Origin: an uncultured Gemmatimonadota bacterium
GTDB taxonomy: Bacteria > JAAXHH01
NCBI GenBank assembly: GCA_951812955.1
Contig: OX638340.1
Span: forward strand, 736,001 to 800,000
Reading direction: 5' to 3'
Length of the DNA stretch: 64,000 nt
In this document: in pieces, positions 7,901 through 47,682 of the stretch
Position numbering within the stretch: position 1 is the stretch's first letter
How the letters are laid out: each line of letters starts with the position of its first letter
Notes under the pieces: generated by a model
Databases searched by the model: none
The model's input: only the letters and a program-made list of their open reading frames with translations
Told to the model about the DNA's origin: nothing
Made by a program: the position numbers and the translations under genes

Positions 7901-8372
7901 CGGCAGCATGGACCTGGAAACCCAGGCACAGGTATCCAGGCTGGCAGCCAGGCAGGAAGCGTTGCGTAAGAGCCTGGAACAACTGCGTAGTGAGCAGCAG
8001 GGTCATCAGGAACAGATTCTCGGCAGGTTGCAGGAAATCGAAAACGAGATGGACGACACCGTACGTGAGTTGCAACAGTTCCGGGTCGACCCCGACCTGG
8101 TGGAGCGCCAGCAACGGATCCTGTCCAGGTTGCTGGACGCTTCGCGGTCCATTCGCGGACAGAAACGCGAGGAAAAGCGGCGAGCCGCACCTGGCGAGGA
8201 CCTCGTTAACCTTCCTGCGCCGGACGACTTGCCCGAAGATCTGACCCAGCTGGAACGCTCCCTCCGGGATGATATCCTGGGTCGTGTCGAAGAAGGCGCG
8301 TATCCCCGGGAATACGAAGAACTCATACGCGCCTATTTCCGCGCGCTTGCACACATTCCTGTAGTAAACTAG
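4983..8372 (+). CDS. large membrane-anchored coiled-coil protein (two N-terminal TM helices; possibly DUF4175-like), function unknown
   Basis: 1129 aa. Residues ~30-80 hold two hydrophobic helices. Residues ~500-1100 are an extremely E/Q/L/M/R-rich predicted coiled coil. No catalytic motif is recognisable. The DUF4175 assignment is from memory only. Confidence 0.6.
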   Translation: MTVPSKTSLSAWHALRDRLHELRIRSRWVVIAEGLFITGALICVLALSLATLESYLYLDPVVRLVLISASIMLLTAVLVRRNLHRLRHGFSDDDLARQVDSQYPELNDRVTVALQLSRQREEGSKASPALLDAAVTDAAKYTRTVDFKEADQRFRIAPAAKRFGLAALLLILAMAAFGAPLTGALGRLASPLTHFQPPQRTFLSVLPGDVEVAAGGHVTIMAEAVGEMPGRAIMHLTSDEGSSNSVDMKATAPGSYSHTLREIRESLTYVIEAGDAVSHSFRIKAIDRPFIGALRLTYHYPAYTRLEPRTTTEGGDIVALKGTRVELAAVDASRNLSEAALFIEHSDEPVAMKVVDDTATVPLTVQSDQRYRIMLRNMDGHESADPAWYRIIALPDRMPSLRILSPGRNTDLTENMVVSFLVSGTDDFGFSGMNLVYRKEPGGEERNLPIPVDTESTMISQPFVWDLSNENLFPGDVVSYRIELYDNDTISGPKRAVSRTYTLRFPSIEEIYDQIDETQEQQVSDMEDMLEEQEETRKKIEELNRTLEQKAREEADGIQSEELSWEQKKEIESVLTGQEQATDELLKAAEAIRATMETLEDHDSPSQELIDKMDQLRKLFQEIATPELLKAMQELKQALQSFDNEQLKASMESFEFEQEEFLKRLERSLSILKQIRMEQQLMAAVRQTQDLAARQDELRYATENSSNSEERLELSEKQQQLGEDTGSLQRDLESLARAMEAFRDMPAERVLEAAGDMERRDMTGNMDQIAEQLKVGRMQRAMAGQQEMSRALSGLNQQLQDIQDQLQEDRMREIAEGMRRAMHQLVDLSVSQETLNERTRSPGGSGTRINILTEDQQGLLGGASLVANDIVSIAQKTPFISPSIGRALGETLNSMERAEDHLAEQERDTASGEQLAAMKSLNETVLALQRSMSNMANSGSSSGMMDLIERLQGMARQQTGINDQMDPMMDESNGSMDLETQAQVSRLAARQEALRKSLEQLRSEQQGHQEQILGRLQEIENEMDDTVRELQQFRVDPDLVERQQRILSRLLDASRSIRGQKREEKRRAAPGEDLVNLPAPDDLPEDLTQLERSLRDDILGRVEEGAYPREYEELIRAYFRALAHIPVVN

Positions 8373-13717: not shown

Positions 13718-15100
13718 TCACGCCGCGAGACCTGCTATCCGGTCGATGAGTATATCCACCTGTTCGGCCGTATCCATGACATGCAGCGTGGCGCGGACCC
13801 CGCTGAATCCGCCGGCGGCGCCGACCGTCCGTATATAGATGTTCGGGTTCCGGTACCACAACCGCCCGACGATATCTGAAGGATTCAGGTCCTTGACCGA
13901 AAAGGATACGAGCGCCATGGACATGCGGGGATCGTCCGACGAATAGACGGTGACCCCGTCGATCTCCTTCAATCCTCTTCTCAGCCGCAGGGACAGGTAA
14001 CGGAGCCGTGCTTCGATGGCTTCCGGGTTAAGTCTGTTGTGGAAATCCAGCGCCGCGCCGATCGAAATGCGGTCCGAGTAGCTCGTGGAGCCTCTCTGCT
14101 CGAGTTTACGCGCACCCTCGATGGCCCGGTCCGGATCGGGTGAACCGGTGTATACAAGCGGACGAATCCGGTCTGCCGCGTCGTTCCGGAGGAACAGGAA
14201 CCCGGTATGCTGGGCGGCCAGCATATACTTGTGGCCCGGGCCCGCGTACATGTCACACCCGAGATCCTGCATGTCCAACTTCATCATGCCAGGCGGTTGG
14301 GCCCCGTCGATCAGCGTTATGATGCCCTTCGACCTTGCCATCTCGCATATTTCCTTCACCGGCATGATGAAACCGTCGGTGTAGTTGATATGGCAGATGG
14401 TGAGGAACCGGGTCTTCGACGTAATGCCCGATTCCACCACGTCTATGACTTTCTGCGGGTCTTCGAGCATGCGGAAACTGGGATCCGAGATGTCCACCAT
14501 CTTGAATTCCAGGCCGTCTCGCTTCGCGCGAAACGCCATCATGTTCTTCACCCACCCGTAGTCATAGTTGGTCGTCAGAATCTCATCGCCCCGTTTCAGG
14601 TCCAGCCCCATGAATCCGAGGCCCATGCCATCGGTAGTGCTGTTTGTGAAGGCGATTTCCTCGACATCCGCTCCTACGAAACCGGCCATGTCCTTGCGAA
14701 TCTGGTCCATGCCGCTGAAAAAGTAGGTCGACCAGCACATGGCAGGATCGGAATTGACTGCTTCCACGGCCTCGGTCTGCGCCTTGTGGACGCTCAGGGG
14801 CGAAATACCCCGTGTGCCGGAATTCATGTATATCACGCCGTCACGAAGGAGGAACTGGGCCGCGACCTTCTCCCAGTATGCCTCGTCATCGGGTGCGGCG
14901 CCGCCATCCGGCGTGTCGGGCAGATCGGGCAGCGGCGCTGCTTCTGCTTCCTGAACCGGGGACAGCAGGGTCGACGCACCGGCCAGCCCGGCCGCGCCGG
15001 CCATCATGCTGCCAATGAATCCACGGCGGGACAGACCTTGCAGCTTGTCAGGGTCCTGAATTCGGGGATCGAAGTGCAATGTTCCTTCGTTGTCAGACAT
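13718..15100 (-). CDS. class V aminotransferase-fold PLP enzyme (cysteine desulfurase/isopenicillin-N-epimerase-like) with a twin-arginine (Tat) signal
   Basis: LSRRGFIGSMMAGAAGLAGA matches the Tat motif S-R-R-x-F-L-K. The body has an aminotransferase class V pattern (ITLIDGAQPPG..., YAGPGHKYMLA). GGAGG RBS lies before the ATG. Confidence 0.8.
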   Translation of the reverse strand: MSDNEGTLHFDPRIQDPDKLQGLSRRGFIGSMMAGAAGLAGASTLLSPVQEAEAAPLPDLPDTPDGGAAPDDEAYWEKVAAQFLLRDGVIYMNSGTRGISPLSVHKAQTEAVEAVNSDPAMCWSTYFFSGMDQIRKDMAGFVGADVEEIAFTNSTTDGMGLGFMGLDLKRGDEILTTNYDYGWVKNMMAFRAKRDGLEFKMVDISDPSFRMLEDPQKVIDVVESGITSKTRFLTICHINYTDGFIMPVKEICEMARSKGIITLIDGAQPPGMMKLDMQDLGCDMYAGPGHKYMLAAQHTGFLFLRNDAADRIRPLVYTGSPDPDRAIEGARKLEQRGSTSYSDRISIGAALDFHNRLNPEAIEARLRYLSLRLRRGLKEIDGVTVYSSDDPRMSMALVSFSVKDLNPSDIVGRLWYRNPNIYIRTVGAAGGFSGVRATLHVMDTAEQVDILIDRIAGLAA

Positions 15101-15258
15101 GAAATGCCTCCATCGGGGATCGAACCGTCCCGTTTATCCGGCTGAATTGGGCAAGTGTAGTGTGCAGTATAATTGGGATCTATAATGGGAACAAGAAATA
15201 ACGATCCATGAGATTAAAGCGAAATGTCTGCGGACGCAGTAACCGCAATGCACAGCTT

Positions 15259-16269
15259 TCACTCGTGCTTCTCCAGGAAATCTTTCAAGCACTCGCATTC
15301 ACTTGCCGCAGCCGGATCCAGTTCGATCTGGTGCATCCGGGCGCGGACGTAGAAGAGGCTCATCTCGTCCGGCGTTCCGTCCCGCTCGATGATCTCCCGC
15401 ACCCTGGCGGGAAAGTAGCTGCCCCAGTCCGGCTGGCGACCATCGAGATCCGTAAAACCGTATTCTTTCGCTAGCGTACCGCTCGAGTACAGCCCGCCGT
15501 ACTTCGAAGCGACGTCCGGATCGGCCGCCAGAGCCGCGACGCCCCTGCCCATGTAGCACGGCGTTTCCGATTCTTCGAAGTATGAGTCCTGGGCAATAGC
15601 GTCCCGCCAGTTCTCTTCCGTGACCCCGAAACCGTCCAATATCGCCTCGGACCGCAGAAACCCCGGCGTGACGGTCAGCGCGGTGATTCGGTGCGCGTGG
15701 AGATCGGTAGCCATCGCGTATCCCAGCCGGATCGTCGCGTTTTTCGCGAAGTCGTAGAACAGGTTCCCGCGATAGCCCATCGTGTCGCCGTCCGTGACTT
15801 CCACGATCAGCCCGGAGTTCTGCTCGATCATGATCGGCACACCGTGCCTGCTGGTGATGATATGGCTGTGTACCGCCCCTTCAATCATCCTGAACCCCTG
15901 GGCCGTATCGAGTTCCCAGAAAGGCGAACCCCACTCGATCATTTCATCGCCGCCCCATATGTCGTTGACGAGGATGTCGAGCCGACCCTGGTCGTTCCTG
16001 ACGCGTGCGAACAATCGCTCCACTTCGGCTTCGATGGTATGGTCCGTCCGCACGGCGATGCCGCGGCCGCCTTCGGCCGTGACGATATCGGCGGTCTCCT
16101 CGATGGTTTCAGGCCGGCCCGGCGTGGCGGGGCGTCCTTTCACGCTCCGTCCGGTGCAATAGACCGTGGCGCCCGCCGCACCGAGCATTCGGGCGATTCC
16201 CCGGCCGGTCCCGCGTGTGGCTCCCGTCACGACAGCCACGCGATCCTGCAGTGATCCACGATCCATCAT
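15259..16269 (-). CDS. short-chain dehydrogenase/reductase (SDR) family oxidoreductase
   Basis: VAVVTGATRGTGRGIA is the Rossmann TGxxxGxG motif. Likely start is the Met at 16269; the track ORF extends to 16350. Confidence 0.8.
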   Translation of the reverse strand: MMDRGSLQDRVAVVTGATRGTGRGIARMLGAAGATVYCTGRSVKGRPATPGRPETIEETADIVTAEGGRGIAVRTDHTIEAEVERLFARVRNDQGRLDILVNDIWGGDEMIEWGSPFWELDTAQGFRMIEGAVHSHIITSRHGVPIMIEQNSGLIVEVTDGDTMGYRGNLFYDFAKNATIRLGYAMATDLHAHRITALTVTPGFLRSEAILDGFGVTEENWRDAIAQDSYFEESETPCYMGRGVAALAADPDVASKYGGLYSSGTLAKEYGFTDLDGRQPDWGSYFPARVREIIERDGTPDEMSLFYVRARMHQIELDPAAASECECLKDFLEKHE

Positions 16270-16534
16270 GTTTCCCGGAAAGCGGTGTGCGTCCGAATCT
16301 TGCCGGTTAAGAAGACGATCCAATGTACTTGCCGCGACGCCCGATGTCAAAGTGATAGGGGGTCCGTCAGGATAGCAGTTGTTTCACCGGACATGACTCA
16401 TTATGGTAAGGGATCCACGCAAACAGCGGGGTCCGGCGACGACACAGAAACGATTGATCCGCGGCAGACTTCCGCATGCGGTTTCCTGATCGTATGATCC
16501 TCCACGATTTGCGATTTCCAATTTCGAGACACAC

Positions 16535-17530
16535 ATGGCCATCATACCTGTCGATTACTCAAATCCTCGCTACGAAGCGACGTCCCTGCACCGTTTTACT
16601 GTAGAAGCGCTACGGAAAGCCGGCTTGTCGCACGCCCACGCATCGGAAATGGCCGATTACCTGACCGCGACGGATCTGCGCGGCGTGCTCAGTCACGGTA
16701 CTCGGCAGCTTCCCGGCTACGTGAGGTCCTTCCAGTCACGCAGCTGCAACGCCACGCCGAACATCCGGATCCATCGCGAAGCCGGAGCAATGGTGCAGTG
16801 GGACGGTGACGGCGGCATGGGACACCTGGTTTCCGCCCGAGCGATCCGCTCGGCGGTCTCACGGGCAAGATCAACGGGGATCTGCCTGGTCACGGCGACG
16901 CACTGCGGCCACACCGGTTCCGTAGGGAACTGGACGCGCATCGCGACGGGGTCGGGCATGATCTGCCTGTACTACAGCACGCCCATGAGTCCGCTTCCCT
17001 TCGACCGGCCAGAACCCGTCGTTGAAGCGTTGAATAACCCCCCGGTCAGCTTCGGATTCCCTGCCGCGGAGGGCGAACCGCCCGTGCTGATCGATATGGG
17101 TACGCACCTGGAACTCCCCGATGTTCAGGAGAAGATCGCGGAGATAAGCGTGCTGCCGCTGATTAAGGGACTGGCCTACCAGGTCACGTCCGTAATGTTG
17201 ACCTGGCCCGTGGACGCGCAATCTCACATTGAACGAAGCTATCCGGGGGCCACCAGCAGCCTCACCGCCGTCGTCCTGGACCCCGCCTTCATCGGCGAGC
17301 CATCCAATTACACGCGAACGGTCACGGAATTGCGGGCGAACATCCATGCCATGCGACCCCTGCCGGGCCTGGACCGTTCATCGTTACCGGGTGAAATCGA
17401 AGCGGAGCGGGAGGCCGATTTCAGCCGGAACGGGATACCCCTGGACGACGCCCACATCCTGTCGCTACGGGACCTGGGCGATGAACTGGGTGTACCGTGC
17501 TACTGGGAGACTGGCGGATGCGGGAGGTAA
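16535..17530 (+). CDS. Ldh2-family (malate/L-lactate/sulfolactate dehydrogenase type 2) oxidoreductase
   Basis: The N-terminal region RFTVEALRKAGLSHAHASEMADYLTATDLRGVLSHGTRQLPGYV is the characteristic Ldh_2 family start. Confidence 0.7.
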   Translation: MAIIPVDYSNPRYEATSLHRFTVEALRKAGLSHAHASEMADYLTATDLRGVLSHGTRQLPGYVRSFQSRSCNATPNIRIHREAGAMVQWDGDGGMGHLVSARAIRSAVSRARSTGICLVTATHCGHTGSVGNWTRIATGSGMICLYYSTPMSPLPFDRPEPVVEALNNPPVSFGFPAAEGEPPVLIDMGTHLELPDVQEKIAEISVLPLIKGLAYQVTSVMLTWPVDAQSHIERSYPGATSSLTAVVLDPAFIGEPSNYTRTVTELRANIHAMRPLPGLDRSSLPGEIEAEREADFSRNGIPLDDAHILSLRDLGDELGVPCYWETGGCGR

Positions 17531-18141
17531 ACGAGGAACAGGCGGGGCGGGCTCATCGCGACCAGCTCCAACGGGCACTGGGTCATTACCTGGCGCGTTT
17601 TCCCGGTGAAGGCGAAACGGTAGAACGGATCCGTTCCCTGGTGGCCGGACATCCCGACTGCTTCGAAAGGACGTGCCTGCCGGGCCACATCACCGGTTCG
17701 GCCTGGATCGTTTCTCCCGACTGTTCTAAATACCTGATGACCCGCCACCGGATATTCGACCGCTGGCTACAGTTGGGCGGCCATTCCGACGGTTGCACCC
17801 AACCTCACCTCGTCGCCCTGCGGGAAGCCGAAGAAGAGTCCGGGCTATCGGGTTTCGGCCTGTACCGTGAGCTGGAAGGATTCGTTCCACTGGACGTGGA
17901 TATCCACACCATCGCCGCCCGGGCCGGCGTACCTGCGCATGCGCATTTCGACCTCCGCTATCTGCTGATGGCATCCGTCGAAAAACCCTTGAAGATAAGC
18001 GATGAATCCCATGACCTCAGGTGGTTTGAAAGGAACGAACTCATGGAAATGATCCACGAAGAAAGCGTGCTTCGCATGCTGCACAAAGGGGACGCCGCCC
18101 TGAAACGGCAGAGGGGGGATTTCGTACACAGTTTCTCCTGA
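17518..18141 (+). CDS. NUDIX hydrolase
   Basis: Nudix box REAEEESGL (REUxEExGU) preceded by GGHSDGC. Starts at the ATG at 17518, or the GTG at 17497, overlapping the upstream gene. Confidence 0.8.
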   Translation: MREVNEEQAGRAHRDQLQRALGHYLARFPGEGETVERIRSLVAGHPDCFERTCLPGHITGSAWIVSPDCSKYLMTRHRIFDRWLQLGGHSDGCTQPHLVALREAEEESGLSGFGLYRELEGFVPLDVDIHTIAARAGVPAHAHFDLRYLLMASVEKPLKISDESHDLRWFERNELMEMIHEESVLRMLHKGDAALKRQRGDFVHSFS

Positions 18142-18269
18142 CGATTCGCTTGCACGACGCCGGCGGGGGGCGTATATTCTCCCCGGACTTTCAAACGACA
18201 AATCTCTGACATTTCCGCCTTGTTCGATCAGCCAAAGGTGGCGGCCAAAACCGAAAGAGGTGCCGTACT

Positions 18270-19025
18270 ATGCCCCCTCCCGCAGCCCTTCAGCTTTATA
18301 CCCTTCGAGAAATGGCCGACAAGGACTTCGATCAGGTGGTGAACCTGACCGCGGAGATCGGTTATGCTGGCGTCGAGCCCGCCGGTTTTCCCGGCACCAC
18401 GCCGGAAGCGGCCGGCAGGCTCTTCGAATCGCTGAACCTCGAAGTTCCCAGCGCGCACCTTCCGCTGCCCGTCGGCGACAACAAATCCTATGTCATCGAA
18501 ACAGCCGGTGCGCTCGGGACCAGCCGCGTGGTCGCGGGGCTGGGCCGGGACGATCACAACACGGTAGACAACATCAGGTGGTCGGCGGACCGCTTCAACG
18601 CGGCCGCGGAAGCCGTAGCGCCTCACGGTTTGACCTTCGGGATACATAATCACTGGTGGGAATACCTCGAGGTTGAGGGACGGATAGCGACGGATATCCT
18701 CCTCGAGCATCTTTCACCAGAGGTATTCTTCCAGGTGGACGTGTACTGGGTTCAGGTCGGCGGTCCCGATCCGGCCGGCGTGCTCGAGCGCCTCGGCGCC
18801 CGAGCGCCGCTGCTTCACCTCAAGGACGGCCCCTGCCTACGGGATACGGACATGACCGCCCTGGGCGAAGGGAAGGTGGACCTCCCTGGCGTGATCGCAG
18901 CCGGCGGAGATCACACCGAGTGGCACATCGTCGAACTGGACAGTTGCGCGACGGACATGGTCGAAGCGGTGAAGAAGAGTTACGACTACCTGGTGGACAA
19001 CGGCCTGTCCCGCGGCAACAGGTAG
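18270..19025 (+). CDS. sugar phosphate isomerase/epimerase (xylose-isomerase-like TIM barrel)
   Basis: TFGIHNHWWE...LLHLKD pattern typical of AP-endonuclease-2/xylose-isomerase-like TIM barrels. GC3-rich on the plus strand; the antisense ORF 18228..18710 is treated as a shadow. Confidence 0.7.
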   Translation: MPPPAALQLYTLREMADKDFDQVVNLTAEIGYAGVEPAGFPGTTPEAAGRLFESLNLEVPSAHLPLPVGDNKSYVIETAGALGTSRVVAGLGRDDHNTVDNIRWSADRFNAAAEAVAPHGLTFGIHNHWWEYLEVEGRIATDILLEHLSPEVFFQVDVYWVQVGGPDPAGVLERLGARAPLLHLKDGPCLRDTDMTALGEGKVDLPGVIAAGGDHTEWHIVELDSCATDMVEAVKKSYDYLVDNGLSRGNR

Positions 19026-30989: not shown

Positions 30990-31286
30990 CGAATTTTGAG
31001 AAAATTTGGCAGGGAATTGGATTCCGACGATGAGGCGCGGTCTGTCCTCAGTGAGCCTTCTTAAGTTGCATTCAATCTGGCTGCCATGTCAGAACTGGTC
31101 AGATTGATTGAAGATGGCGCCATAGCGTATCGACATGGATGGCGAAATCGATCGACGTCCATGCACAATCTCATTAATTGGACGTGGTGCAACCCCGATT
31201 GCACGCGCCATGAAATTCTGCGAAATGCCCATCGGCTTGAGGTACTCCTCAAGTAGAACCTCGCCGGGTGTTATGGGTTTTTGCAT
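30990..31286 (-). pseudogene. higA: HigA-family (XRE HTH) antitoxin interrupted by an in-frame TGA at 31089-31091; orphan, with no HigB
   Basis: [48 protein letters not shown] matches the HigA consensus HPGEIL.EEFLEPLG.SQ..LA.ALGV....I..IV.G.R. The ORF stops at FNQSDQF*. Read-through as Trp gives FWHGSQIECNLRRL, aligning with the family's conserved FWLNLQ..YDL tail. Confidence 0.5.
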
Positions 31287-31332
31287 AGTTATTCCTACTA
31301 CTGGAAACTACTGGTTTGGTGTACTACTAAGA

Positions 31333-33003
31333 CTAATTAACCAAATACCATTTTAGGTTCGAACCTGGAAGGTTAACTTTCACTTCCTTGAATTCAAGGA
31401 GATCCAGATTTCCTGTAAATTCACCCCGCAGTAAAACTCCTTGATCTTCATACGGTCCGATGAGAGAGTCTTCCTTATTGTCAAGTTTAATCTTCTTACC
31501 GTCTAAGGTTTCGAAAGTAATGTCCTTGAACTCTCGTGGCTTGCCAATGTCAGCCGTTGCATACACGTTTCCAAGCACCTGGTTTGCGTCCAGAGAGTAC
31601 CTTTGGGCCACAGACTCAGTCGTCGACCTTTGACTGTGCATCTCTATTGTTACCACTTCAACACCATCCTTATTGCGTCCCACAACACGTACAGGTTCTC
31701 CAAATGCTGAGACACGAGAATCGGTAACCGCTGCTATCCGATCATCAAGCAATGGATGTGTTCGGAACGCCGTAAGGTTCTTTCCATCTTCCCCTGTAAA
31801 GTAGTCCGAATAATACCGTAGTTTCCTCAATACCAGGCTAAAGGCATCGATGCCGCGCTGACCGTACAGCCGTTCCATGTACAATGCCGCCATCGCATCT
31901 GCTTCTTCCTCCATAGAGCGCGGATAGCCTTCATAGAAAACATCTGTAGCCGCTTTTGCGAATATGTATGTTAATCCTCCCAAGACCTGGATTTCGTCAT
32001 CAGATTTCCCCGAAGCAGCACCTACTGCCGCAGCGAATATGCTCAACCCCGTTGCTATAAGTTGCTTCTTCTTCTGATTCTGGTAAATTCGATAGCTATG
32101 TCGTCTTTCTACGTGTGCGATTTCATGTGCCAGTACAGCTTCGATCTCCAGATCGCTCTCTGAAGATTCCAACAAACCTCGATTTACGTATACAAAACCA
32201 GTTGGTACTGCGTACGCGTTGATCTCATCGTCTTCCATAACCGAGAATCGATAGTCGTAACCTTGTAGGGGTATAGGCCAGTGATCCAACACGCGTTTTC
32301 CTATCTCCCTTGCCCGGGACTGAAGGTCATCATCAGTCGCCATCTGATTCGCACTCTGGATCACTTGCACTGAGTACAATCCAAGTACACGTTCAGTGGA
32401 ATAGTCACTTACTAGTGGAGTCGATTTAAAACACAATGCACACGGGCGCATTCCCGTTTCTTCCGCTTCTTCAATTGAACCAAAAGGATGCTGCATGTCA
32501 GGATGAGGTAAATGATTGCTGGACGCCACATGGTACATTTTACTATCAGTGTTTCCTATCAATACTTCATATTCAGTGGAATGTTCATCCAACCTGAAAC
32601 ATAAAGCCAAACCCGTTTTAAATGCCTCCCGACCCATTACCGGTGAATGCAAGGGAGAAGAAAAACGAACCTGGCCCTTGCCCAGTCGAGTGCTTCTGAC
32701 TTCTACTTCTATTCGGTCTTCCTTTGCCTTGATTGATCGAATCTCGATCGGTTCATCTTTGGGGATTCGGAACAGATTACGATAACGTCTAGAATGGGCG
32801 TAATAATAGGTATTACCCTCGTGTTGATAGTAAGTCAGAGGATTTTGATGTATACTGCCTCTAAGTATTGCCTGACGTCCTTTTAATTCATTCTCTAGTT
32901 CCTTTACCATCTTCGAGGATACTTTTTGTGCAAATAGGTCTTCAGAAGCCACGAGACAAATCACGATGCACATATACCGAACTAAATTGCGGTCCATAAA
33001 CAT
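31333..33003 (-). CDS. secreted M48-family zinc metallopeptidase (BepA/HtpX-like HEIAH...RRH) with long unknown N- and C-terminal regions
   Basis: HExxH zinc motif AHEIAHVERRHS. N-terminal signal/TM. The gene is markedly AT-richer (~45% GC by eye) than its surroundings. The track ORF extends to 33051. Confidence 0.7.
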   Translation of the reverse strand: MFMDRNLVRYMCIVICLVASEDLFAQKVSSKMVKELENELKGRQAILRGSIHQNPLTYYQHEGNTYYYAHSRRYRNLFRIPKDEPIEIRSIKAKEDRIEVEVRSTRLGKGQVRFSSPLHSPVMGREAFKTGLALCFRLDEHSTEYEVLIGNTDSKMYHVASSNHLPHPDMQHPFGSIEEAEETGMRPCALCFKSTPLVSDYSTERVLGLYSVQVIQSANQMATDDDLQSRAREIGKRVLDHWPIPLQGYDYRFSVMEDDEINAYAVPTGFVYVNRGLLESSESDLEIEAVLAHEIAHVERRHSYRIYQNQKKKQLIATGLSIFAAAVGAASGKSDDEIQVLGGLTYIFAKAATDVFYEGYPRSMEEEADAMAALYMERLYGQRGIDAFSLVLRKLRYYSDYFTGEDGKNLTAFRTHPLLDDRIAAVTDSRVSAFGEPVRVVGRNKDGVEVVTIEMHSQRSTTESVAQRYSLDANQVLGNVYATADIGKPREFKDITFETLDGKKIKLDNKEDSLIGPYEDQGVLLRGEFTGNLDLLEFKEVKVNLPGSNLKWYLVN

Positions 33004-33092
33004 CCTCCTAGTAGTAAGTTTGTAGTTGTGAATCACCTGTGCTATTACCATGTCCTGCTATTACCAAATTTCAGAAAGCTTGCTTTATTAGC

Positions 33093-34502
33093 TCAGCCTG
33101 ACTCGCTCCCATACTTCGCGTCCCCCACTTTCTCCTGAAGCCGCTTCAATTCCGCCTTCAACTGTGTAACCACTTCCGCGTAATCGGGATCCGCGTACAC
33201 GTTGTTTAGTTCGCAGGGATCCTTCTCCAGGTCGAACAGTTCCCACTCGGGCTCGGACTTCGGACCGATCGCGCCTTCCTGTCCGAGGGGGTCACCGTAA
33301 TAGTTGATCAGCTTGAACCGCAGGGTGCGGACGCCGTAGTGGGCGCAGACGTTGTGGTGGGCGCCGTGCATCCAGTACCGGTAGTACATGGACGTCTGCC
33401 ATTCATCCGGGGTCTCTCCCTGCAGGAGCGGCCGGAAGGAACAGCCCTGGAATGACTTCGGGATGTCCGCGCCTGCGCAATCCAGGAAGGTGGCGGGGAA
33501 GTCGACGTTCAGGATCATGTCTCCGTTCACCGTTCCCGGCGCCACCTCTCTGGGGTATCGGATCAGGAAGGGCATGCGCAGAGACTCCTCGTACATGAAC
33601 CGCTTGTCGTACCATCCGTGGTCTCCGAGGAAGAAACCCTGGTCCGACGTGTAGATCACGATGGTGTCCTCCGCGATCTCTTCTTCATCCATATAGTCCA
33701 GCAATCTGCCTACGTTGTCATCGATCGAGGCTATGCATCGCAGGTAGTCCTTGATATACCGCTGGTACTTCCAGCTTTTCTCTTCGGCGGGTGTCAGGCC
33801 TTCCGGTACAGGCACCTTCAGATCCTCCGCGGTGAGATCGCTTTCAACCCGCATCCGGGCGGCCGTGGCGGCCGCGGCCCGGTTCGAATAGTCGTCGTCG
33901 AAAGTCTCCGGCTCCGGGATGTCCTCGTCCTCATACATGTTCGCGTGCCGGTCGTCTGGCTCCCAGGACCTGTGCGGCGCCTTGTGATGAACCATGAGGC
34001 AGAAGGGACGGTCCCGGTCGCGGCCGCGTAGCCAGTCCAGGGAATAGTCCGTGATGAGATCGGTGGTGTACCCGCTTCGCTTCGTCCGTTCTCCCATTCT
34101 GATCATCTCGGGATCGTGATACAGGCCCTGGCCGGGCAGCACGTCCCAGAAGTCGAATCCGGTAGGATCGTGGATGCCTCCGTGGCCGAGATGCCACTTG
34201 CCTACCACCGCCGTCTGGTAACCCTGTTCCTGCAGCACCTTGGGATAATTCAGCAGGCGTCCGTCCAGGTGGGTGGACAGGGTGGTGACGCCGTTTACAT
34301 GGTTATACGTTCCCGTCAGGATAGCCGCACGGCTGGGCGTGCAGATGGAATTGGTGCAGAAGCAGTTGTCGAACCGCATCCCTTCGGCCGCGATGCGGTC
34401 GATATGGGGCGTCGCGTTGATCCTGCTGCCATAGGCGCTGATGGCGTGTGACGCGTGATCGTCGGCCATGATGAACAGGATGTTCGGGCGTGATTGGGGC
34501 AT
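33093..34502 (-). CDS. Cys-type sulfatase (arylsulfatase family) without a signal peptide
   Basis: MPQSRPNILFIMADDH...CTPSRAAILTG (C-x-P-x-R formylglycine motif)...GKWHLG. The N-terminus starts directly at the conserved core. Confidence 0.85.
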   Translation of the reverse strand: MPQSRPNILFIMADDHASHAISAYGSRINATPHIDRIAAEGMRFDNCFCTNSICTPSRAAILTGTYNHVNGVTTLSTHLDGRLLNYPKVLQEQGYQTAVVGKWHLGHGGIHDPTGFDFWDVLPGQGLYHDPEMIRMGERTKRSGYTTDLITDYSLDWLRGRDRDRPFCLMVHHKAPHRSWEPDDRHANMYEDEDIPEPETFDDDYSNRAAAATAARMRVESDLTAEDLKVPVPEGLTPAEEKSWKYQRYIKDYLRCIASIDDNVGRLLDYMDEEEIAEDTIVIYTSDQGFFLGDHGWYDKRFMYEESLRMPFLIRYPREVAPGTVNGDMILNVDFPATFLDCAGADIPKSFQGCSFRPLLQGETPDEWQTSMYYRYWMHGAHHNVCAHYGVRTLRFKLINYYGDPLGQEGAIGPKSEPEWELFDLEKDPCELNNVYADPDYAEVVTQLKAELKRLQEKVGDAKYGSESG

Positions 34503-37506: not shown

Positions 37507-40464
37507 TCAGGGACGCAATGTCAACCTGTCACGGGCGCGCTTCAGCCAGTCTACCCCGCCAGCAGGTTCCATCTCCGACAGGAAACGGGAAGGCTGCTTC
37601 CGCTGTGTCGTAATGCAGAGCCTTTCTTCGGCCCGTGTCAGGGCGACGTAGAAAACGCGCCGCTCCTCCTCGATCTGCTCTTCTGAACCCGTCATGCGTC
37701 GGTGGGGCAGTATATCCTCGACCACGTGGAAGAGTATGACGCCCTTGAATTCGTCTCCCTTGCTCCGGTGAATCGTCGTGACTGTAATCCGGTCTTCGGC
37801 AGGCGATGTGTCGCTATGGGTTGCCGCAGGCTGCTCGCCGTCGCCTGCCGTTCCTCCATCATGTGCGTGGCCATCGACCGTTGCTTCCGGTTGCGCACTA
37901 TCTCGGGCTGTATCTCCCCGATATGCACTTTGTTCACCCCTTTCCGCCTGAGACGTGTCATAGCGGACGTATTCTTCAGGATCCGCGTCCGAACCGGAAG
38001 CCATGGACCTGAGATAAGCGCGAACGAACGAGTCCGTAGTCGGATATCTTGCGGCCATCTGCCTTATCATACCGATCGACTCCTCACCAGAAGCCGTCAT
38101 CCGCTGCCTGCTCGTCTCGTCCCTTTGCAGGTAGTAGGCGGCGAGCCCCGACTGATCCATCAACGTATCGAGGAAATCGACCGGAGGCACGCCCGGGGAC
38201 CCGTATACTTTGCGCAGGTTTTCGATGCATCCACGGTATTCATCGAGTTTGCCGTTTACGTCGCCCGGCAGACTGTCTATCCGCTCGAGGAAACGGGGAC
38301 CTAGCACCGCCGCTTCGCGCAGTCGGGCATTGGAGAGCAGCCGAGAAGGGAAGGACAGGCTAATCGCGTATGAAAGGGGATCGGCCTTTTCACCGTGTGC
38401 GACGACGTCGACATAAGCCCCCACGGTCCTTCCCACGTGGGTCTGGTACAGGGCGCCTTCATCGAGTGGATGGAAGGGCAGGTCCGCTTCCTTTAGAGCG
38501 GATTGAAGGGGCGACGCGATGGACTGGACGCGGACCAGGACGGCCATGTCCCTGAAGGCGTACCCCAGCTTGCCCCACCGGTGTATCGTGCGTACCACGG
38601 CATCTGTTTCGGCTTCCATAGACGGACATTTGTGGACCCGGATTGTGTTTCTGTCCGAACCAACCTGTACCGGACGGATTGGCTTGTCGAAACGGTTCGC
38701 GTTATGGGAAATGACGCTGGCGGATTGGGTTACGATTTCCGGTCCGCATCGGTAATTCGCCCCCAGGGTGTGGACCGCAGCGCCGGGATACCACCGCTGA
38801 AACGAGCGGATATTCTCCGGATCCGCGCCGGTGAAGGTATTGATCATCTGGTCGTCATCGCCCACGGCAAACAGGTTGTTCAGCGGCAGGGAGAGCAGTC
38901 TCAGCATCAGGAACTGCACGGGGGTCAGGTCCTGGACCTCGTCCACCAGGACCGAATCGAAGCGATGCTGATATACGGTTCGCGCCCGGGGAGCTGAAAG
39001 AAGGATTTCCACGGCGCGGAATAACTGCTCGTCGAAGGTCATCAGGGCCTTGTCGCTCATGCTGCGTTCCACTTCTTCGCGCATTCTGAGGACCTGGCGC
39101 CTATCAAAGTCCTCAGTTCCCTCGCACGCGCCATATTCATCGATGGGCATCAACGTTCTCCGGTACCTGGAGACCGCCTCCTCGTACGCAATGACGAGAT
39201 GCTCAGGAAAGGGATAGGGGATGGCCGGGAAGTGCCGCTTGAAATCCTCCTTCAGCGCTTTTCTGTATATATCCGTCAACCCACCTGGCAGCGACTGTCC
39301 CGTAACGACGCCATAGTCCGCGTAGGGACTCTCCGGCGCCTGTCTGCAGATCTCGAAACCCAGGCTGTGCAGCGTCCGGATATGCACGTCCGGCAGTCCG
39401 GCATCCCCGTGTATACGCTCTGCCATCACCTCGCTCGCCGCCTTGTTGAAAACCACGCAGAGAATCCGGCCGGGGCGGACGCCGCCCCGCACGGCTTCAA
39501 CCACCCGCCGTGTCAGCACCCGCGTCTTTCCCGAGCCCGCGGGCGCCAGGGTGAGCACCACGCCGGCGCGAGGATCCAGACACCTGGCCTGTTCTCCGGC
39601 CAGACCGGGGTTCGGCTCAGGCATCGGAAGTACGGTTCCGCGGCCGTTGCCGGCCAGATTCGAACGGACCCGTTCTATACATCCGTCGAGATCGTGTACG
39701 ACCTCGCTCCCATTGAACCGGATCACATCCCGAATGTTATGTGCTCGAGTCAGTTCCTTGTCCCACGTGGTGCGGTCGGCGCGGACAAACTCCCTGCCGT
39801 CGACCTCCACGGCCACGAAACTGCCGCGTGAGTCGTCAACAAGCAGATCGACGAAACACGAGCCGAACGGGGCATGTAGCTCGTGGGACAAGCCGGCCCG
39901 GGCAAGCCCCTCGTGCATCTTCCTCTCGACGGGCGTCAACCAGGGTTCTGCCGATGAATTAAACGCATCGGGAGTCGGAAACACGGCACAGGTGCAAGCC
40001 AGGAGGAACCGCAATTGTTCTCTCAGGAGAGGTGACATCGTATCTTCGATCTCGTCCTTATCCGGCATGCCGACCGAACCGGTGTCCAGATCCTGAAGAT
40101 CCCAGGACGCGAACAGATACAGGGGTATGTATCGCCTGTACGCCGGAAGGACGAGGAGGTTTACCAGGCTGTTCATATGGGCCAAGTGCCTGGACGTCAA
40201 TTTGAGGATCAGGCGATCGGGTTCACCCCGCACTTCCTGGCCTTCCTCCGGATCGCTCATTACGGCCGTGCCCGGACGGGACTCGATTTCGGGCATGGAG
40301 TATTCACCAGGACACCGGAATACCGCGAGTCCGCGGCCCTTCTGTTCCCGCAGAGGTACTTCGCCCGGAACGAGCTGGACCGAACCAACGGCCGAACCGC
40401 AGACCGGATGTTGTTCCGCCGATCGGGTCTCTTCTGCCGATAGAACTTCGTCCGTAGATGGCAT
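37507..40464 (-). CDS. UvrD/Rep-type SF1 helicase fused to an N-terminal DUF559 (Vsr-like PD-(D/E)xK) endonuclease-like domain
   Basis: The DUF559 signature is LTPVERKMHEGLARAGL...FVDLLVDDSRGSFVAVEVDGREF...DKELTRAHNIRDVIRFNGSEV. Helicase motifs are LAPAGSGKT (Walker A), VLVDEVQD, and motif V/VI TVTTIHRSKGDEF...VALTRA. An acidic low-complexity insert precedes motif V. The track ORF's first Met is at 40464; internal Mets could be the real start. Confidence 0.8.
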   Translation of the reverse strand: MPSTDEVLSAEETRSAEQHPVCGSAVGSVQLVPGEVPLREQKGRGLAVFRCPGEYSMPEIESRPGTAVMSDPEEGQEVRGEPDRLILKLTSRHLAHMNSLVNLLVLPAYRRYIPLYLFASWDLQDLDTGSVGMPDKDEIEDTMSPLLREQLRFLLACTCAVFPTPDAFNSSAEPWLTPVERKMHEGLARAGLSHELHAPFGSCFVDLLVDDSRGSFVAVEVDGREFVRADRTTWDKELTRAHNIRDVIRFNGSEVVHDLDGCIERVRSNLAGNGRGTVLPMPEPNPGLAGEQARCLDPRAGVVLTLAPAGSGKTRVLTRRVVEAVRGGVRPGRILCVVFNKAASEVMAERIHGDAGLPDVHIRTLHSLGFEICRQAPESPYADYGVVTGQSLPGGLTDIYRKALKEDFKRHFPAIPYPFPEHLVIAYEEAVSRYRRTLMPIDEYGACEGTEDFDRRQVLRMREEVERSMSDKALMTFDEQLFRAVEILLSAPRARTVYQHRFDSVLVDEVQDLTPVQFLMLRLLSLPLNNLFAVGDDDQMINTFTGADPENIRSFQRWYPGAAVHTLGANYRCGPEIVTQSASVISHNANRFDKPIRPVQVGSDRNTIRVHKCPSMEAETDAVVRTIHRWGKLGYAFRDMAVLVRVQSIASPLQSALKEADLPFHPLDEGALYQTHVGRTVGAYVDVVAHGEKADPLSYAISLSFPSRLLSNARLREAAVLGPRFLERIDSLPGDVNGKLDEYRGCIENLRKVYGSPGVPPVDFLDTLMDQSGLAAYYLQRDETSRQRMTASGEESIGMIRQMAARYPTTDSFVRAYLRSMASGSDADPEEYVRYDTSQAERGEQSAYRGDTARDSAQPEATVDGHAHDGGTAGDGEQPAATHSDTSPAEDRITVTTIHRSKGDEFKGVILFHVVEDILPHRRMTGSEEQIEEERRVFYVALTRAEERLCITTQRKQPSRFLSEMEPAGGVDWLKRARDRLTLRP

Positions 40465-40493
40465 TCGTTTCCTTTTTGTCCTGTTCTATAGAC

Positions 40494-40522
40494 GGAACGT
40501 ACCTGGCGCGGAACGTACGTAC
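40494..40522. promoter_or_regulatory. direct repeat GGAACGTAC x2; the second copy forms GAACGTACGTAC, a near Cheo-type LexA box (GAAC-N4-GTTC)
   Basis: Seen directly. It lies 30-58 bp upstream of the helicase start codon. Confidence 0.25.
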
Positions 40523-40738
40523 TCCGAACTTGTCCACGAAATCCCGGCGGGATTCGCAGGTACGATCGAAATCCATGGGGCAAGTTATCCGTCAACATGT
40601 ACTCTTTACAGTCGGCGCGATGATGCCAATCTCGAAACAATGGACCGAAACCGGATTGCGAAGGGTCCGCACCATCTCGCGCAATATGTTGATGGATCGT
40701 TAATTGCCGGTTATTTTCGGTTTGAGGAGGCCAGCGCT

Positions 40739-41839
40739 ATGGGTGCAGTGGAAGAAAAAGTCTGGGGCGCTTTACGTTCCAGGCCCGTCTTTTTATACAC
40801 GTTGAACAGTGCGAGCGGCGCGGCCGCGCACGTAACGAACTACGGAGCGATACTCAAATCCATGGAGGTCCCTGATTCTGATGGGAACCTCGTGGACGTC
40901 GTGCTGGGTTTCGACACCTTCGAGGAATACCTGGGCGAACACCCCTTCTTCGGCGCCACGGTGGGCCGTTGCGCCAATCGGATCGCGGGCGGACGGTTTA
41001 CGCTGGGGGGAAAGGCATACAGCCTGGCGATCAACGACAGGGCCGGTCCCAATCACATCCACGGGGGGCCCGGTGGATTCGACAAGCAGGTCTGGGAACC
41101 GGTAGACTTCGGTCAGCGCGAAGATGGAACCTATGTGGTACTGGCCTACACGAGCGCCGATGGTGAGGAAGGGTACCCGGGTACCGTGGAGACGACCGTT
41201 ACCTATACCCTTACCCGCGACGACGAGTTGCGGATTTCGATGGAGGCGCGTACCGACCGGCCCACGGTGGTGAACCTGACCAATCATTCTTACTGGAACC
41301 TGAACGGCCACCAGTCCGGTTCTGTGCTGGACCACGAGGTAACCCTGTTCGCCGACGCCTACACGCCCGTCGACGGCCACCATATTCCCACGGGCGAAAT
41401 CAAGGAGGTCGCCGGGACGCCCTTCGACTTCACCGGACCCAGAACAATTGCCGCGGAGATGGACGCCACTGCTACGCCCGGTCCGAGGAACCCCGAAGAT
41501 CCTGTCGGATACGACCACAATTTCGTGCTGCACGATGCCGGCGGAAAGATCAGGCCGGCGGCCCGTGCGGCTTCCCGCCGATCCGGCCTCACGATGGAAG
41601 TAAGGACCGACCAGGCGGGCGTGCAGTTCTACACGGGGAACCATCTGTCCGGCGCCCTGTCGGGTAAAGGTGGCGCGCACTATGGCAGGCACCACGCCTT
41701 CTGCCTGGAAACGCAGGCCTTTCCCGACGCGATCAATCACCAGGACGCACCGGGATGGCCTTCGGTTGTGCTGAATCCAGGTGAGGCATACCGCCACGAG
41801 GTATGCTATGCATTCGCGTCCATGGAACCGGCCCCGTAA
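40739..41839 (+). CDS. galM: aldose 1-epimerase (galactose mutarotase)
   Basis: GAILKSMEVPDSDGNLVDVVLGFDTFEEY...HIHGGPGGFDKQVW...HSYWNL is the mutarotase core. GAGGAGG RBS lies before the ATG at 40739. The longer track ORF starting at 40127 overlaps the helicase and is rejected. Confidence 0.8.
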   Translation: MGAVEEKVWGALRSRPVFLYTLNSASGAAAHVTNYGAILKSMEVPDSDGNLVDVVLGFDTFEEYLGEHPFFGATVGRCANRIAGGRFTLGGKAYSLAINDRAGPNHIHGGPGGFDKQVWEPVDFGQREDGTYVVLAYTSADGEEGYPGTVETTVTYTLTRDDELRISMEARTDRPTVVNLTNHSYWNLNGHQSGSVLDHEVTLFADAYTPVDGHHIPTGEIKEVAGTPFDFTGPRTIAAEMDATATPGPRNPEDPVGYDHNFVLHDAGGKIRPAARAASRRSGLTMEVRTDQAGVQFYTGNHLSGALSGKGGAHYGRHHAFCLETQAFPDAINHQDAPGWPSVVLNPGEAYRHEVCYAFASMEPAP

Positions 41840-46923: not shown

Positions 46924-47682
46924 ATGAATCCAGACATCAGTAAATTACTCGATGATTGGGATTACACGGGGCCCGATAAACTCATTGTGCGCAAAATAAA
47001 GGGAGAAGACGGCCGGACAAAGATCCAGATGCGAGTGGACCTTGGAATCCTGCAGATGGAATGGTCAGATCGCCCGGATGGCAAAAGGCCCCACGGGAAG
47101 ACCTCGTTGCTGGATCACTTCCTGGACCGGCTGGAGAAACAAAAAGCGGATAAGGGTCCGGACACAGAACTCAATATCTCCCATGACGACTGCGTGAACC
47201 TGCAGACCGAATCGCTGCAGTATTACTACAGGCGTATTTGCATGTTCGAACTGGAATCCTACCACGAGGCCTGCCGGGACGCCGAACACAACCTACAGAT
47301 CATGGACATCGTGCGGACCCACGCCGAAAACGAAGACGACCGCCTGTCTCTCGAGCAATACCGGCCCTTCGTCATCATGCATCGCACCCGGGCGAAAAGC
47401 CTGATCGCTACGGGTTCGGACGATGTCGAGCAGTCCCTGCGGCATATCGAAGAAGGCATAGAAGAGATAGAGGCTTTCTTTCGTTCCTACGACCGGGACG
47501 ACCTGGTCAAAGAAAGCCAGGAACTGAAAGTCCTGCGAGACATGGCCGAGGAAATCCGAAAACAACAGCCCCGTTCCGAGGAAGACCAGTTGAGGGCGGA
47601 ATTGTCGGACGCCGTCGAGAACGAGGAGTTTGAACGGGCCGCCGAAATACGGGATGAACTGAAGAAGTTCGACCTGCCCTAG
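46924..47682 (+). CDS. hypothetical protein with a C-terminal UvrB/UvrC (UVR) motif
   Basis: The C-terminus LRAELSDAVENEEFERAAEIRDELKK fits the UVR motif. The N-terminal 200 aa are unassigned. Confidence 0.5.
   Translation: MNPDISKLLDDWDYTGPDKLIVRKIKGEDGRTKIQMRVDLGILQMEWSDRPDGKRPHGKTSLLDHFLDRLEKQKADKGPDTELNISHDDCVNLQTESLQYYYRRICMFELESYHEACRDAEHNLQIMDIVRTHAENEDDRLSLEQYRPFVIMHRTRAKSLIATGSDDVEQSLRHIEEGIEEIEAFFRSYDRDDLVKESQELKVLRDMAEEIRKQQPRSEEDQLRAELSDAVENEEFERAAEIRDELKKFDLP

Follow-up and report, generated by a model that had tools for sequence, protein, structure and literature searches.

A solitary fusion of a Vsr-type nuclease fold and a UvrD-type helicase at a conserved chromosomal locus

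A 64,000-nucleotide stretch of DNA (the window) from an uncultured Gemmatimonadota bacterium encodes a fusion protein of four parts: a tail, an alpha/beta N-domain, a Vsr/DUF559-type domain and a UvrD/PcrA-type SF1A helicase. Our best explanation, which we advance tentatively and would place a little short of an even chance, is that this protein is a stand-alone DNA enzyme whose family likely originated as a single-gene defense system, and that the present copy has been fixed as a guard or maintenance factor with a remodeled site.

Results

The open reading frame (37507..40464, minus strand) runs from ATG to stop, encodes 985 aa plus the stop codon and is a real gene, with AGGA 8 nt 5' of the ATG and a start codon (MPSTDEV...) common to the 92-93% homologues. 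By geometry it forms a single-gene unit, convergent with a D-Ser-dehydratase-like gene and divergent from an aldose epimerase gene, which bears out the preliminary description of a monocistronic 985-aa ORF with unrelated metabolic flanks. Searches for RNA elements in and around the fusion gene returned nothing but noise (eukaryotic snoRNA and miRNA matches below threshold), and PADLOC gave no matches on the M48 peptidase island and its neighbors. Taken alone, the gene looks like any ordinary gene of the chromosome.

The helicase core (aa 288-965; 37570..39603, minus strand) matches Pfam UvrD-helicase at aa 291-559 (E 8e-41) and UvrD_C to aa 955 (E 4e-35). Its SF1A motif set (Walker A, Walker B, III, IV, V and VI) is complete and intact with invariant motif columns, and includes GSGKT at 310-314, DEVQD at 508-512, GDDDQ at 535-539, NYRC at 570-573, TIHRSKGDEF at 897-906 and EEERRVFYVALTRA at 932-945, confirming the UvrD-type SF1 helicase first proposed. 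Directly before motif V lies an acidic low-complexity insert (aa 822-886; 37807..38001, minus strand) of 65 aa (D+E 23%, K+R 6%, G 12%). The insert of about 60 aa that had been described is therefore present, but it is not conserved: its length is variable, distant homologues lack it, and its dN/dS of 0.36-0.50 is faster than that of the folded domains. NCBIfam scores were 222 bits against a cut-off of 911 for PcrA, 178 against 1144 for UvrD, 193 against 965 for NF008743 and 186 against 951 for Rep, and on these sequence scores we conclude that the protein is not orthologous to any of these helicases.

PADLOC profiles, whose use the preliminary description had suggested, gave a divided answer: the best matches are GajB models (E 2.8e-59; GajB accounts for 23 of the 25 best matches listed) and lie over the generic helicase core only, and the N-terminal module has no match among the PADLOC models. 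These matches, with weak AddA and RecB matches in NCBIfam, are what could be said for a GajB-like component of a multi-gene system (Gabija) or a RecB/AddA-type end-processing enzyme, a reading that is almost certainly wrong. The AddA and RecB scores are far under their cut-offs (97 against 708 and 72 against 696), there is no PDDEXK_1 match and no C-terminal RecB-type nuclease domain is present, and we reject membership in either family. GajA, an OLD-type ATPase with a TOPRIM nuclease, is absent beside the gene and from the homologue contexts examined. Because a partner gene is missing here and in every homologue context, we also reject Gabija or another multi-gene system; Gabija membership is effectively refuted by gene context.

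The preliminary description had assigned the N-terminal ~280 aa to a DUF559-like nuclease. A Vsr/DUF559 fold does occur at ~176-272, but residues 38-175 form a separate conserved domain. The protein opens with a variable, probably disordered tail (aa 1-37; 40354..40464, minus strand; pLDDT 42-51) that is unalignable across the family and has a dN/dS of 0.5-2.3. The N-domain that follows (aa 38-175; 39940..40353, minus strand) is a five-stranded alpha/beta domain with an AAA+/ASCE-like core, in which neither Walker A (GxxxxGK[ST]) nor Walker B (hhhhDE) was found. It carries the motifs WExKGRGLAVF, LPAYRRxIPLYLF and REQLRxLLA, and its conserved residues include K42, R44, F49, R84, P107, P114, Y116, E149 and Q150. 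Pfam gave no AAA match or any other match on aa 38-175, and a comparison of its sequence with the PDB returned nothing below E 0.4. The N-domain is thus a previously unannotated, degenerate AAA+-like alpha/beta domain.

The third part (aa 176-272; 39649..39939, minus strand) has a Vsr-like PD-(D/E)xK fold of the Vsr/DUF559/MTES_1575 type. Pfam PF18741 matches the protein weakly, at 21-23 bits and below its gathering score (cut-off 38.2), and matches 23/28 family members (best E 2.4e-10); DUF559 matches 16/28, and PF03852 (Vsr) does not match the protein. Mapping of active-site residues to Vsr E25, D51, D97 and the ExD pair followed PMC3239194. All five acidic residues of the site are kept, with E180, D206, E220 and D222 invariant in the family alignment and D235 nearly so. 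Position 227, equivalent to Vsr His69 and I-Bth0305I His213 (PMC3239194), is the general-base histidine site; it is His in 159/213 aligned family sequences, Val in our protein and V, I, D or T across its clade. The protein has its histidine at 197 instead, the position of a conserved DUF559 Gln. The two positions covary (Q197/H227, n=151; H197/non-H227, n=46), and one intermediate lineage carries both His197 and His227. In the predicted structure, which covers the N-terminal module, H197 faces D206 across a hairpin.

From this predicted hairpin geometry we infer that the histidine moved from 227 to 197 within a single clade, an active-site remodeling. Nuclease activity of the domain is nevertheless uncertain from its residues, because V227 replaces the general-base His while H197 arises opposite a metal-binding Asp, and the label 'nuclease' is not secure because the canonical catalytic His is absent. 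The domain might instead be catalytically dead in this clade and serve a non-cutting helicase only through DNA binding, structure recognition or autoinhibition, for example in protein displacement or in unwinding particular structures. The residues found at 227 are consistent with such a loss, as is the inactivation of I-Bth0305I by the mutation pair H213A and D196A (PMC3239194), and the dN/dS of the Vsr domain is somewhat above that of the helicase. However, the five acidic residues are invariant even in the His-less clade, which a purely structural module would not be expected to show, and the placement of His197 opposite D206, together with the lineage that has both histidines, also argues against a dead site. 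We consider loss of catalysis distinctly unlikely.

The fusion gene occupies the same locus in 12/12 sampled relatives carrying the flanking genes, where the lineage sampled comprised MAGs labeled Gemmatimonadetes or Latescibacterota. Its GC content is native, and since synteny is also conserved, we reject recent horizontal transfer of this copy. From the shared locus, native GC and metabolic neighbors we conclude that the gene belongs to the core genome of the lineage. Part of what the preliminary description would have taken as evidence against its own reading, a core housekeeping orthologue, therefore applies: the gene is core locally, yet not orthologous to UvrD, PcrA or Rep. Values of dN/dS were 0.28-0.34 for the N-domain, 0.24-0.57 for the Vsr domain, 0.07-0.31 for helicase segments and 0.09-0.28 for the flanking genes; all three folded modules are under purifying selection.

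This conservation also fits a lineage-specific DNA-repair helicase-nuclease, in which the Vsr-like domain would recognize or nick mismatches or lesions (e.g. T:G from 5-methylcytosine deamination) and the UvrD motor would remove the nicked strand. Locus, neighbors, GC and selection on every folded domain are all compatible with repair, and C5-methyltransferase genes lie near two homologues. Against it, the fusion is the most diverged protein of the block in 7/8 tabulated relatives (61-73% compared with 68-94% for the neighbors), evolving faster than the genes around it, and the domain lacks both the Vsr general-base His and a PF03852 match. Distribution outside the lineage is also patchy: a GTDB scan found at least four species representatives above 60% identity and, likewise as a minimum, scattered members in Chloroflexota, Bacteroidota and Fraserbacteria. 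Weighing these points along with the promoter and the family contexts below, we regard a dedicated repair role as possible but somewhat unlikely.

The preliminary description had also raised a damage-inducible helicase, citing a near LexA-type box in the promoter. The divergent intergenic spacer (40465..40741), common to the aldose epimerase gene, whose true start is at ~40742, contains a conserved block at ~40605-40637 and short direct repeats (GTACGTTCCG, twice). The box itself exists: GTACGTACGTTC at 40511-40522 is one mismatch from the Cheo-like GAAC-N4-GTTC, a consensus that may not be that of the host phylum. About 0.1-0.2 such one-mismatch matches are expected by chance in the spacer, and among reliably aligned upstream regions the site is seen again only in the 92% relative, where it too has one mismatch. 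A scan of ten upstream regions with seven known LexA motif types at up to one mismatch, in which boundaries are imprecise at five loci, gave chance-level matches only, none recurring beyond the 92% relative. No sigma-70-like promoter was found. With scanned sites at chance level and no wider recurrence, SOS regulation via a LexA box is not supported; damage induction draws on a chance-level match that is not conserved, and this weighs against repair as well.

Beyond this lineage the family comprises at least 80 clusters at 50% identity and is widespread in metagenomes. A profile of the N-terminal module finds 340 cluster representatives at E<1e-10, and helicase motifs were present in 82/145 of the newly found representatives examined. 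The windowed protein is collinear with one homologue, P0140, over aa 97-969 at 29% identity, which together with the profile matches speaks for a single family along the whole protein. Relatives in IMG/VR viral contigs were limited to remote helicase-core matches, none with the N-terminal module, and BFVD gave generic Vsr/DUF559-fold matches only; we reject a viral origin. A literature search found no experiment on any family member.

Family members are solitary genes in every context examined, and no conserved partner gene was found in any of these homologue contexts. Outside the lineage, members often adjoin integrase, GmrSD-like, restriction-modification or HEPN genes. One homologue has GmrSD_N immediately upstream and N6 and C5 methyltransferases nearby; others lie with ArdC and an S1-P1 nuclease; with an SNF2 helicase, an MmeI-like enzyme and GmrSD_N; with ResIII, HATPase_c_3 and PLDc_2; with an integrase, ParE and PIN-TPR; or with an integrase, a transposase, HEPN and GmrSD_N. 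Several wider-family members sit among ordinary genes, and the locus in the window has no defense neighbor. The antiphage role suggested in the preliminary description thus finds family-level backing in the defense and mobile neighbors of distant homologues, but not at this locus, which is metabolic and core. Membership in defense or mobile islands is a further point against a repair enzyme.

Discussion

UvrD acts from nicks made by MutH or UvrC, and on this precedent the defense-derived enzyme that we favor may work by a 'nick (or grip) and unwind' scheme. The Vsr-like domain would cut or recognize a single strand of the DNA; the UvrD-type motor would then load at that point, translocate 3'->5' and strip or expose the DNA, and the N-domain would have a regulatory role or bind a partner. 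A DNA-targeting defense or conflict system encoded by one gene is the most likely origin of the family. In the Gemmatimonadetes/Latescibacterota-labeled lineage, the copy would have become a fixed part of the chromosome, retained as a constitutive guard or for genome maintenance, and the shift of the histidine from 227 to 197 would have remodeled its active site. A bolder form of this proposal, which we think rather unlikely, holds that the family is a new single-gene antiphage/anti-plasmid system and the windowed copy its domesticated descendant, whose catalytic His migrated from 227, in the loop after the ExD strand, to 197 on the neighboring strand.

Nuclease-helicase fusions recur in bacterial immunity and DNA repair, and this family adds an undescribed arrangement in which a UvrD motor follows a Vsr-type nuclease fold and an AAA+-like domain that lacks Walker motifs. 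If its defense-island members restrict phages or plasmids, they would constitute a new single-gene system. The lineage-fixed copy would, if our reading is true, show the retention and remodeling of such a gene after domestication, and the change from 227 to 197 His would illustrate how the active site of a Vsr-type nuclease can relocate in nature. The pairing of Q197H with H227V is a covarying active-site change open to mutagenesis.

Comparison with known systems

By sequence, PcrA, UvrD and Rep (1pjr, 4c2u, 2is1, 1uaa) are closest to the helicase core (E 7e-48 to 1e-30); the motif set is the same, and a region of the protein aligns with the 2B subdomain. The fusion differs in NCBIfam scores that are 4-6 fold under the equivalog cut-offs, in the two added N-terminal domains (together 270 aa) and the acidic insert preceding motif V, and in family-specific invariant stretches that include LTLAPAGSGKTRVLTRRVVEAV and VGDDDQMINTFTGADP. 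With the DUF559/Vsr family (NGO0050, 3hrl; I-Bth0305I, 3r3p, 'EDxHD'; E. coli Vsr, 1cw0) it shares the E...D...ExD...D constellation, and Pfam DUF559 and MTES_1575 matches are seen across its family. Unlike those enzymes, its domain is fused to a helicase and has no PF03852 match, and its clade lacks the general-base His of Vsr H69 and I-Bth H213, with a His instead at the conserved DUF559 Gln position.

UvrD-type helicases from defense contexts also include PADLOC C3a187 (NERD + UvrD) and GajB. C3a187 is described by PADLOC as a helicase paired with a nuclease-related domain, as here, but matches to both cover only the helicase core (aa 307-668), and our protein has neither a NERD domain nor GajA. 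UvrD-Cas4-like fusions have been predicted as defense components from their neighborhoods, including Dcm/Vsr pairs (PMC5704561). They, AddA and RecB fuse a UvrD-family motor to a PD-(D/E)xK-superfamily nuclease, as here, but their nuclease is RecB/Cas4-type and C-terminal, whereas ours is Vsr/DUF559-type and N-terminal, after the AAA+-like domain.

Giant HEPN-transglutaminase-SF1 helicase-Vsr REase-wHTH proteins (MTES_1575 type) are solitary and are predicted to act on invading DNA with no modification partner involved (PMC3710099). Like our protein, they join an SF1 helicase and a Vsr-family REase fold in one polypeptide. Their nuclease, however, is C-terminal and accompanied by HEPN, transglutaminase and wHTH domains, and their helicase is Upf1-like, where ours is UvrD-type with an N-terminal nuclease fold. 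We take these giants to be the single-gene defense system Hhe. A Pfam scan of our protein gave AAA_12 only at E 1.4e-3, below the cut-off, and no HEPN, transglutaminase or DUF3320 match; we reject Hhe membership on domain type, domain order and scores.

Neither Nhi nor Hachiman had a model among the 25 best PADLOC matches listed. Nhi of Staphylococcus provides single-gene nuclease-helicase immunity (bioRxiv 10.1101/776245), and Hachiman HamAB is a nuclease and helicase defense unit (PMC12278908). Those systems have been validated experimentally, whereas our family is known here from sequence and model; the concept they have in common with it is a nuclease and a helicase in one unit that would nick and unwind or degrade DNA.

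A UvrD-type helicase with a Vsr-like domain

The 985-aa protein is encoded on the minus strand (37507-40464), with AGGA 8 nt upstream of its ATG and an N-terminus, MPSTDEV..., common to the 92-93% homologs. Pfam profiles place UvrD-helicase at aa 291-559 (E 8e-41), with UvrD_C or UvrD_C_2 reaching aa 955. The SF1 motifs are complete, and the motif columns are invariant in homologs as low as 36% identity. The nuclease-helicase architecture of a preliminary description is borne out, with corrections. As NCBIfam equivalog scores were all 4-6 fold under cut-off, we classify the protein as a UvrD-type helicase that is not an ortholog of the named housekeeping enzymes. The ~280 aa formerly given to DUF559 are not one domain and comprise three parts: a tail (aa 1-37) that varies across homologs and is of low confidence in the structure model, an AAA+-like alpha/beta domain (aa 38-175), and the Vsr-like domain (aa 176-272). 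We confirmed the acidic insert directly N-terminal to motif V (aa 822-886; D+E 23%, K+R 6%, G 12%). This low-complexity segment varies in length among homologs and is absent from distant ones, and its dN/dS of 0.36-0.50 marks faster evolution than in the folded domains. We read it as a disordered loop rather than a functional domain.

Full-length homologs form two tiers, of which the tier at 36-93% identity comes from metagenome-assembled genomes labeled Gemmatimonadetes or Zixibacteria and, in a GTDB scan, Latescibacterota; copies above 60% identity occur in at least four GTDB species representatives. The second tier was reached with a profile of the N-terminal module, which retrieved 340 cluster-50 representatives (E<1e-10). 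Helicase motifs were found in 82 of 145 new representatives examined, 76 of the 145 were at least 850 aa long, and a domain scan of nine representatives returned DUF559/MTES_1575 plus UvrD in every case. Query residues 97-969 and the homolog P0140 can be aligned collinearly, with 29% identity, and the architecture therefore has a single origin. Database names of family proteins are generic only, and our literature search found no paper on this Vsr-like plus UvrD architecture.

Active site of the Vsr-like domain

Based on the published Vsr/I-Bth0305I correspondence (PMC3239194), E180 maps to Vsr E25, D206 to D51, E220 to the acidic residue at position 62, D222 to H64 (I-Bth N208), D235 to D97, and position 227 to H69 (I-Bth H213), the proposed general base. 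His occupies position 227 in 159 of the aligned family sequences, but the query has Val there and its clade V, I, D or T, as would be expected of a nuclease-dead helicase adaptor, which could serve either a defense-derived or a repair role. However, the 218 aligned family sequences show no variation at E180, D206, E220 or D222, and position 227 covaries with position 197, which is Gln in 153 sequences and His in the query's clade (Q197/H227, n=151; H197/non-H227, n=46); the homolog P0049 is intermediate, with His at both. Because strands 193-200 and 203-210 form a hairpin with a two-residue turn in the predicted structure, residue 197 would lie opposite D206. The pairing of H197 with non-H227 fits relocation of the catalytic His from 227 to 197 better than simple inactivation, although it represents just one evolutionary event. 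We consider the nuclease-dead adaptor improbable.

Elsewhere in the domain, C262 in the last helix (~39679-39681) is near-invariant family-wide (204 of ~210 sequences). Several homologs (among P0019-P0041) carry up to ~10 DPHDG-like pentapeptide repeats between the D206 and E220 strands, thus within the nuclease fold, and others have Gly/Arg/Ser/Thr-rich repeats (GRGSGT- or GHGPGTSHGRR-like) in the linker to the helicase.

Gene boundaries and upstream spacer

The mechanically called aldose epimerase ORF (40127-41839, plus strand) overlaps the helicase 5' end on the opposite strand. Its epimerase domain begins at residue 223 and homologs are 366-375 aa long, so the real start lies near 40742, where a GGAGG motif also points; the called 5' end is ~205 codons too long, and the divergent spacer is 277 nt (40465-40741). 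With a D-Ser-dehydratase-like gene convergent at its 3' end, the helicase is a single-gene unit, as first proposed.

The preliminary description had also raised damage-inducible repair, citing a near LexA-type box in the promoter. The sole candidate in the spacer, GTACGTACGTTC (40511-40522), has one mismatch to the Cheo box (GAAC-N4-GTTC), and we estimate ~0.1-0.2 such matches per 290 nt by chance. The 92% relative carries another one-mismatch variant at the equivalent place, and loci L001, L002 and L090 carry none, a comparison read in these four loci, five further loci being uninformative owing to an imprecise upstream boundary. The site falls inside short lineage-specific repeats, and a spacer scan detected no sigma-70-like promoter. 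The candidate box is a chance-level match. A dedicated DNA-repair role is in our view unlikely, if less so than the adaptor.

The spacer repeats are short, tandem and different by lineage: GTACGTTCCG twice in the window, ~3 copies of GTTCCGCGCCAGGTGT-type units in L089, the 92% relative (~7990-8100), three units of ~50 nt each in L002 (~7800-8000), and GGGTCGCCCGCGAAC three times in L011 (~7880-7940). A block, TTTCGAGATTGG...TCGCGCCGACTGTAA (~40605-40637), is kept in relatives at 61-92% protein identity, at ~100 nt ahead of the epimerase start and ~150 nt ahead of that of the helicase. This block may be an operator or promoter element common to both genes.

Genomic context

The helicase occupies the same position in all 12 relatives sampled, of which nine are represented by long contigs and three by short metagenome contigs, in the order aldose epimerase, helicase, D-Ser-dehydratase-like gene, SnoaL, PALP enzyme, sulfatase. 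Its GC matches background, and together these results show that the gene is core within its lineage; on the core-versus-accessory question it is therefore core here, but not as a housekeeping ortholog. It is also the most diverged protein of the block in seven of eight relatives tabulated (61-73% identity versus 68-94% for its neighbors), although its folded domains are under purifying selection.

At a distance of 4-6 kb from the helicase lies a variable integration hotspot, occupied in the window by a low-GC island (31100-33099; GC 0.40-0.50 versus ~0.60 background) with a 572-aa M48-peptidase gene (31333-33051, minus strand). At the same site after the sulfatase, relatives carry PrlF/PIN, HTH_3/Fic, DUF433/DUF5615 or C5 methyltransferase cargo; PADLOC gave no match on the window's hotspot cargo. 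L089 has two genes inserted between PALP and sulfatase (14512-18381) and absent from the window, encoding an 875-aa PHP/SMC_N/AAA_23-like protein and a 412-aa SLFN_AlbA_2 plus HATPase_c_4 protein, a pair that looks defense-like. The gene at 46924-47682 (plus strand), ~6.5 kb from the helicase, encodes 252 aa with a UvrB/UvrC (UVR) motif at the C-terminus and keeps its relative position, at 88-92% protein identity, in all eight relatives tabulated.

At broader scale the gene is patchy and associated with defense islands. Six homolog contexts outside the lineage contained, respectively, an abutting GmrSD_N gene with N6 and C5 methyltransferases; ArdC and S1-P1 nuclease; SNF2, an MmeI-like enzyme and GmrSD_N; ResIII, HATPase_c_3 and PLDc_2; integrase, ParE and a PIN-TPR protein; and integrase, transposase, HEPN and GmrSD_N. 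Four of five sampled GTDB loci had ordinary immediate neighbors, the fifth a ResIII-domain gene ~2.5 kb upstream, and no context examined held a conserved partner gene. The antiphage role suggested initially is plausible for the family, given the defense and mobile neighbors of distant homologs, but is not reflected in the query locus. We tentatively favor a nick-or-grip-and-unwind enzyme of defense-island ancestry: the Vsr-like domain would nick or grip DNA for the helicase then to unwind, and a copy of the ancestral gene would have been fixed and remodeled in this lineage.

Among known systems, UvrD-Cas4 fusions are proposed defense components (PMC5704561), and the MTES_1575 REase, the domain type matched in this family, was first defined within giant HEPN-helicase-Vsr proteins (PMC3710099). 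The nearest solved structures to the helicase are PcrA, Deinococcus UvrD, E. coli UvrD, M. tuberculosis UvrD1 and Rep, yet the equivalog cut-offs for such enzymes are missed; Vsr and I-Bth0305I have His at the general-base position, whereas the query has Val227.
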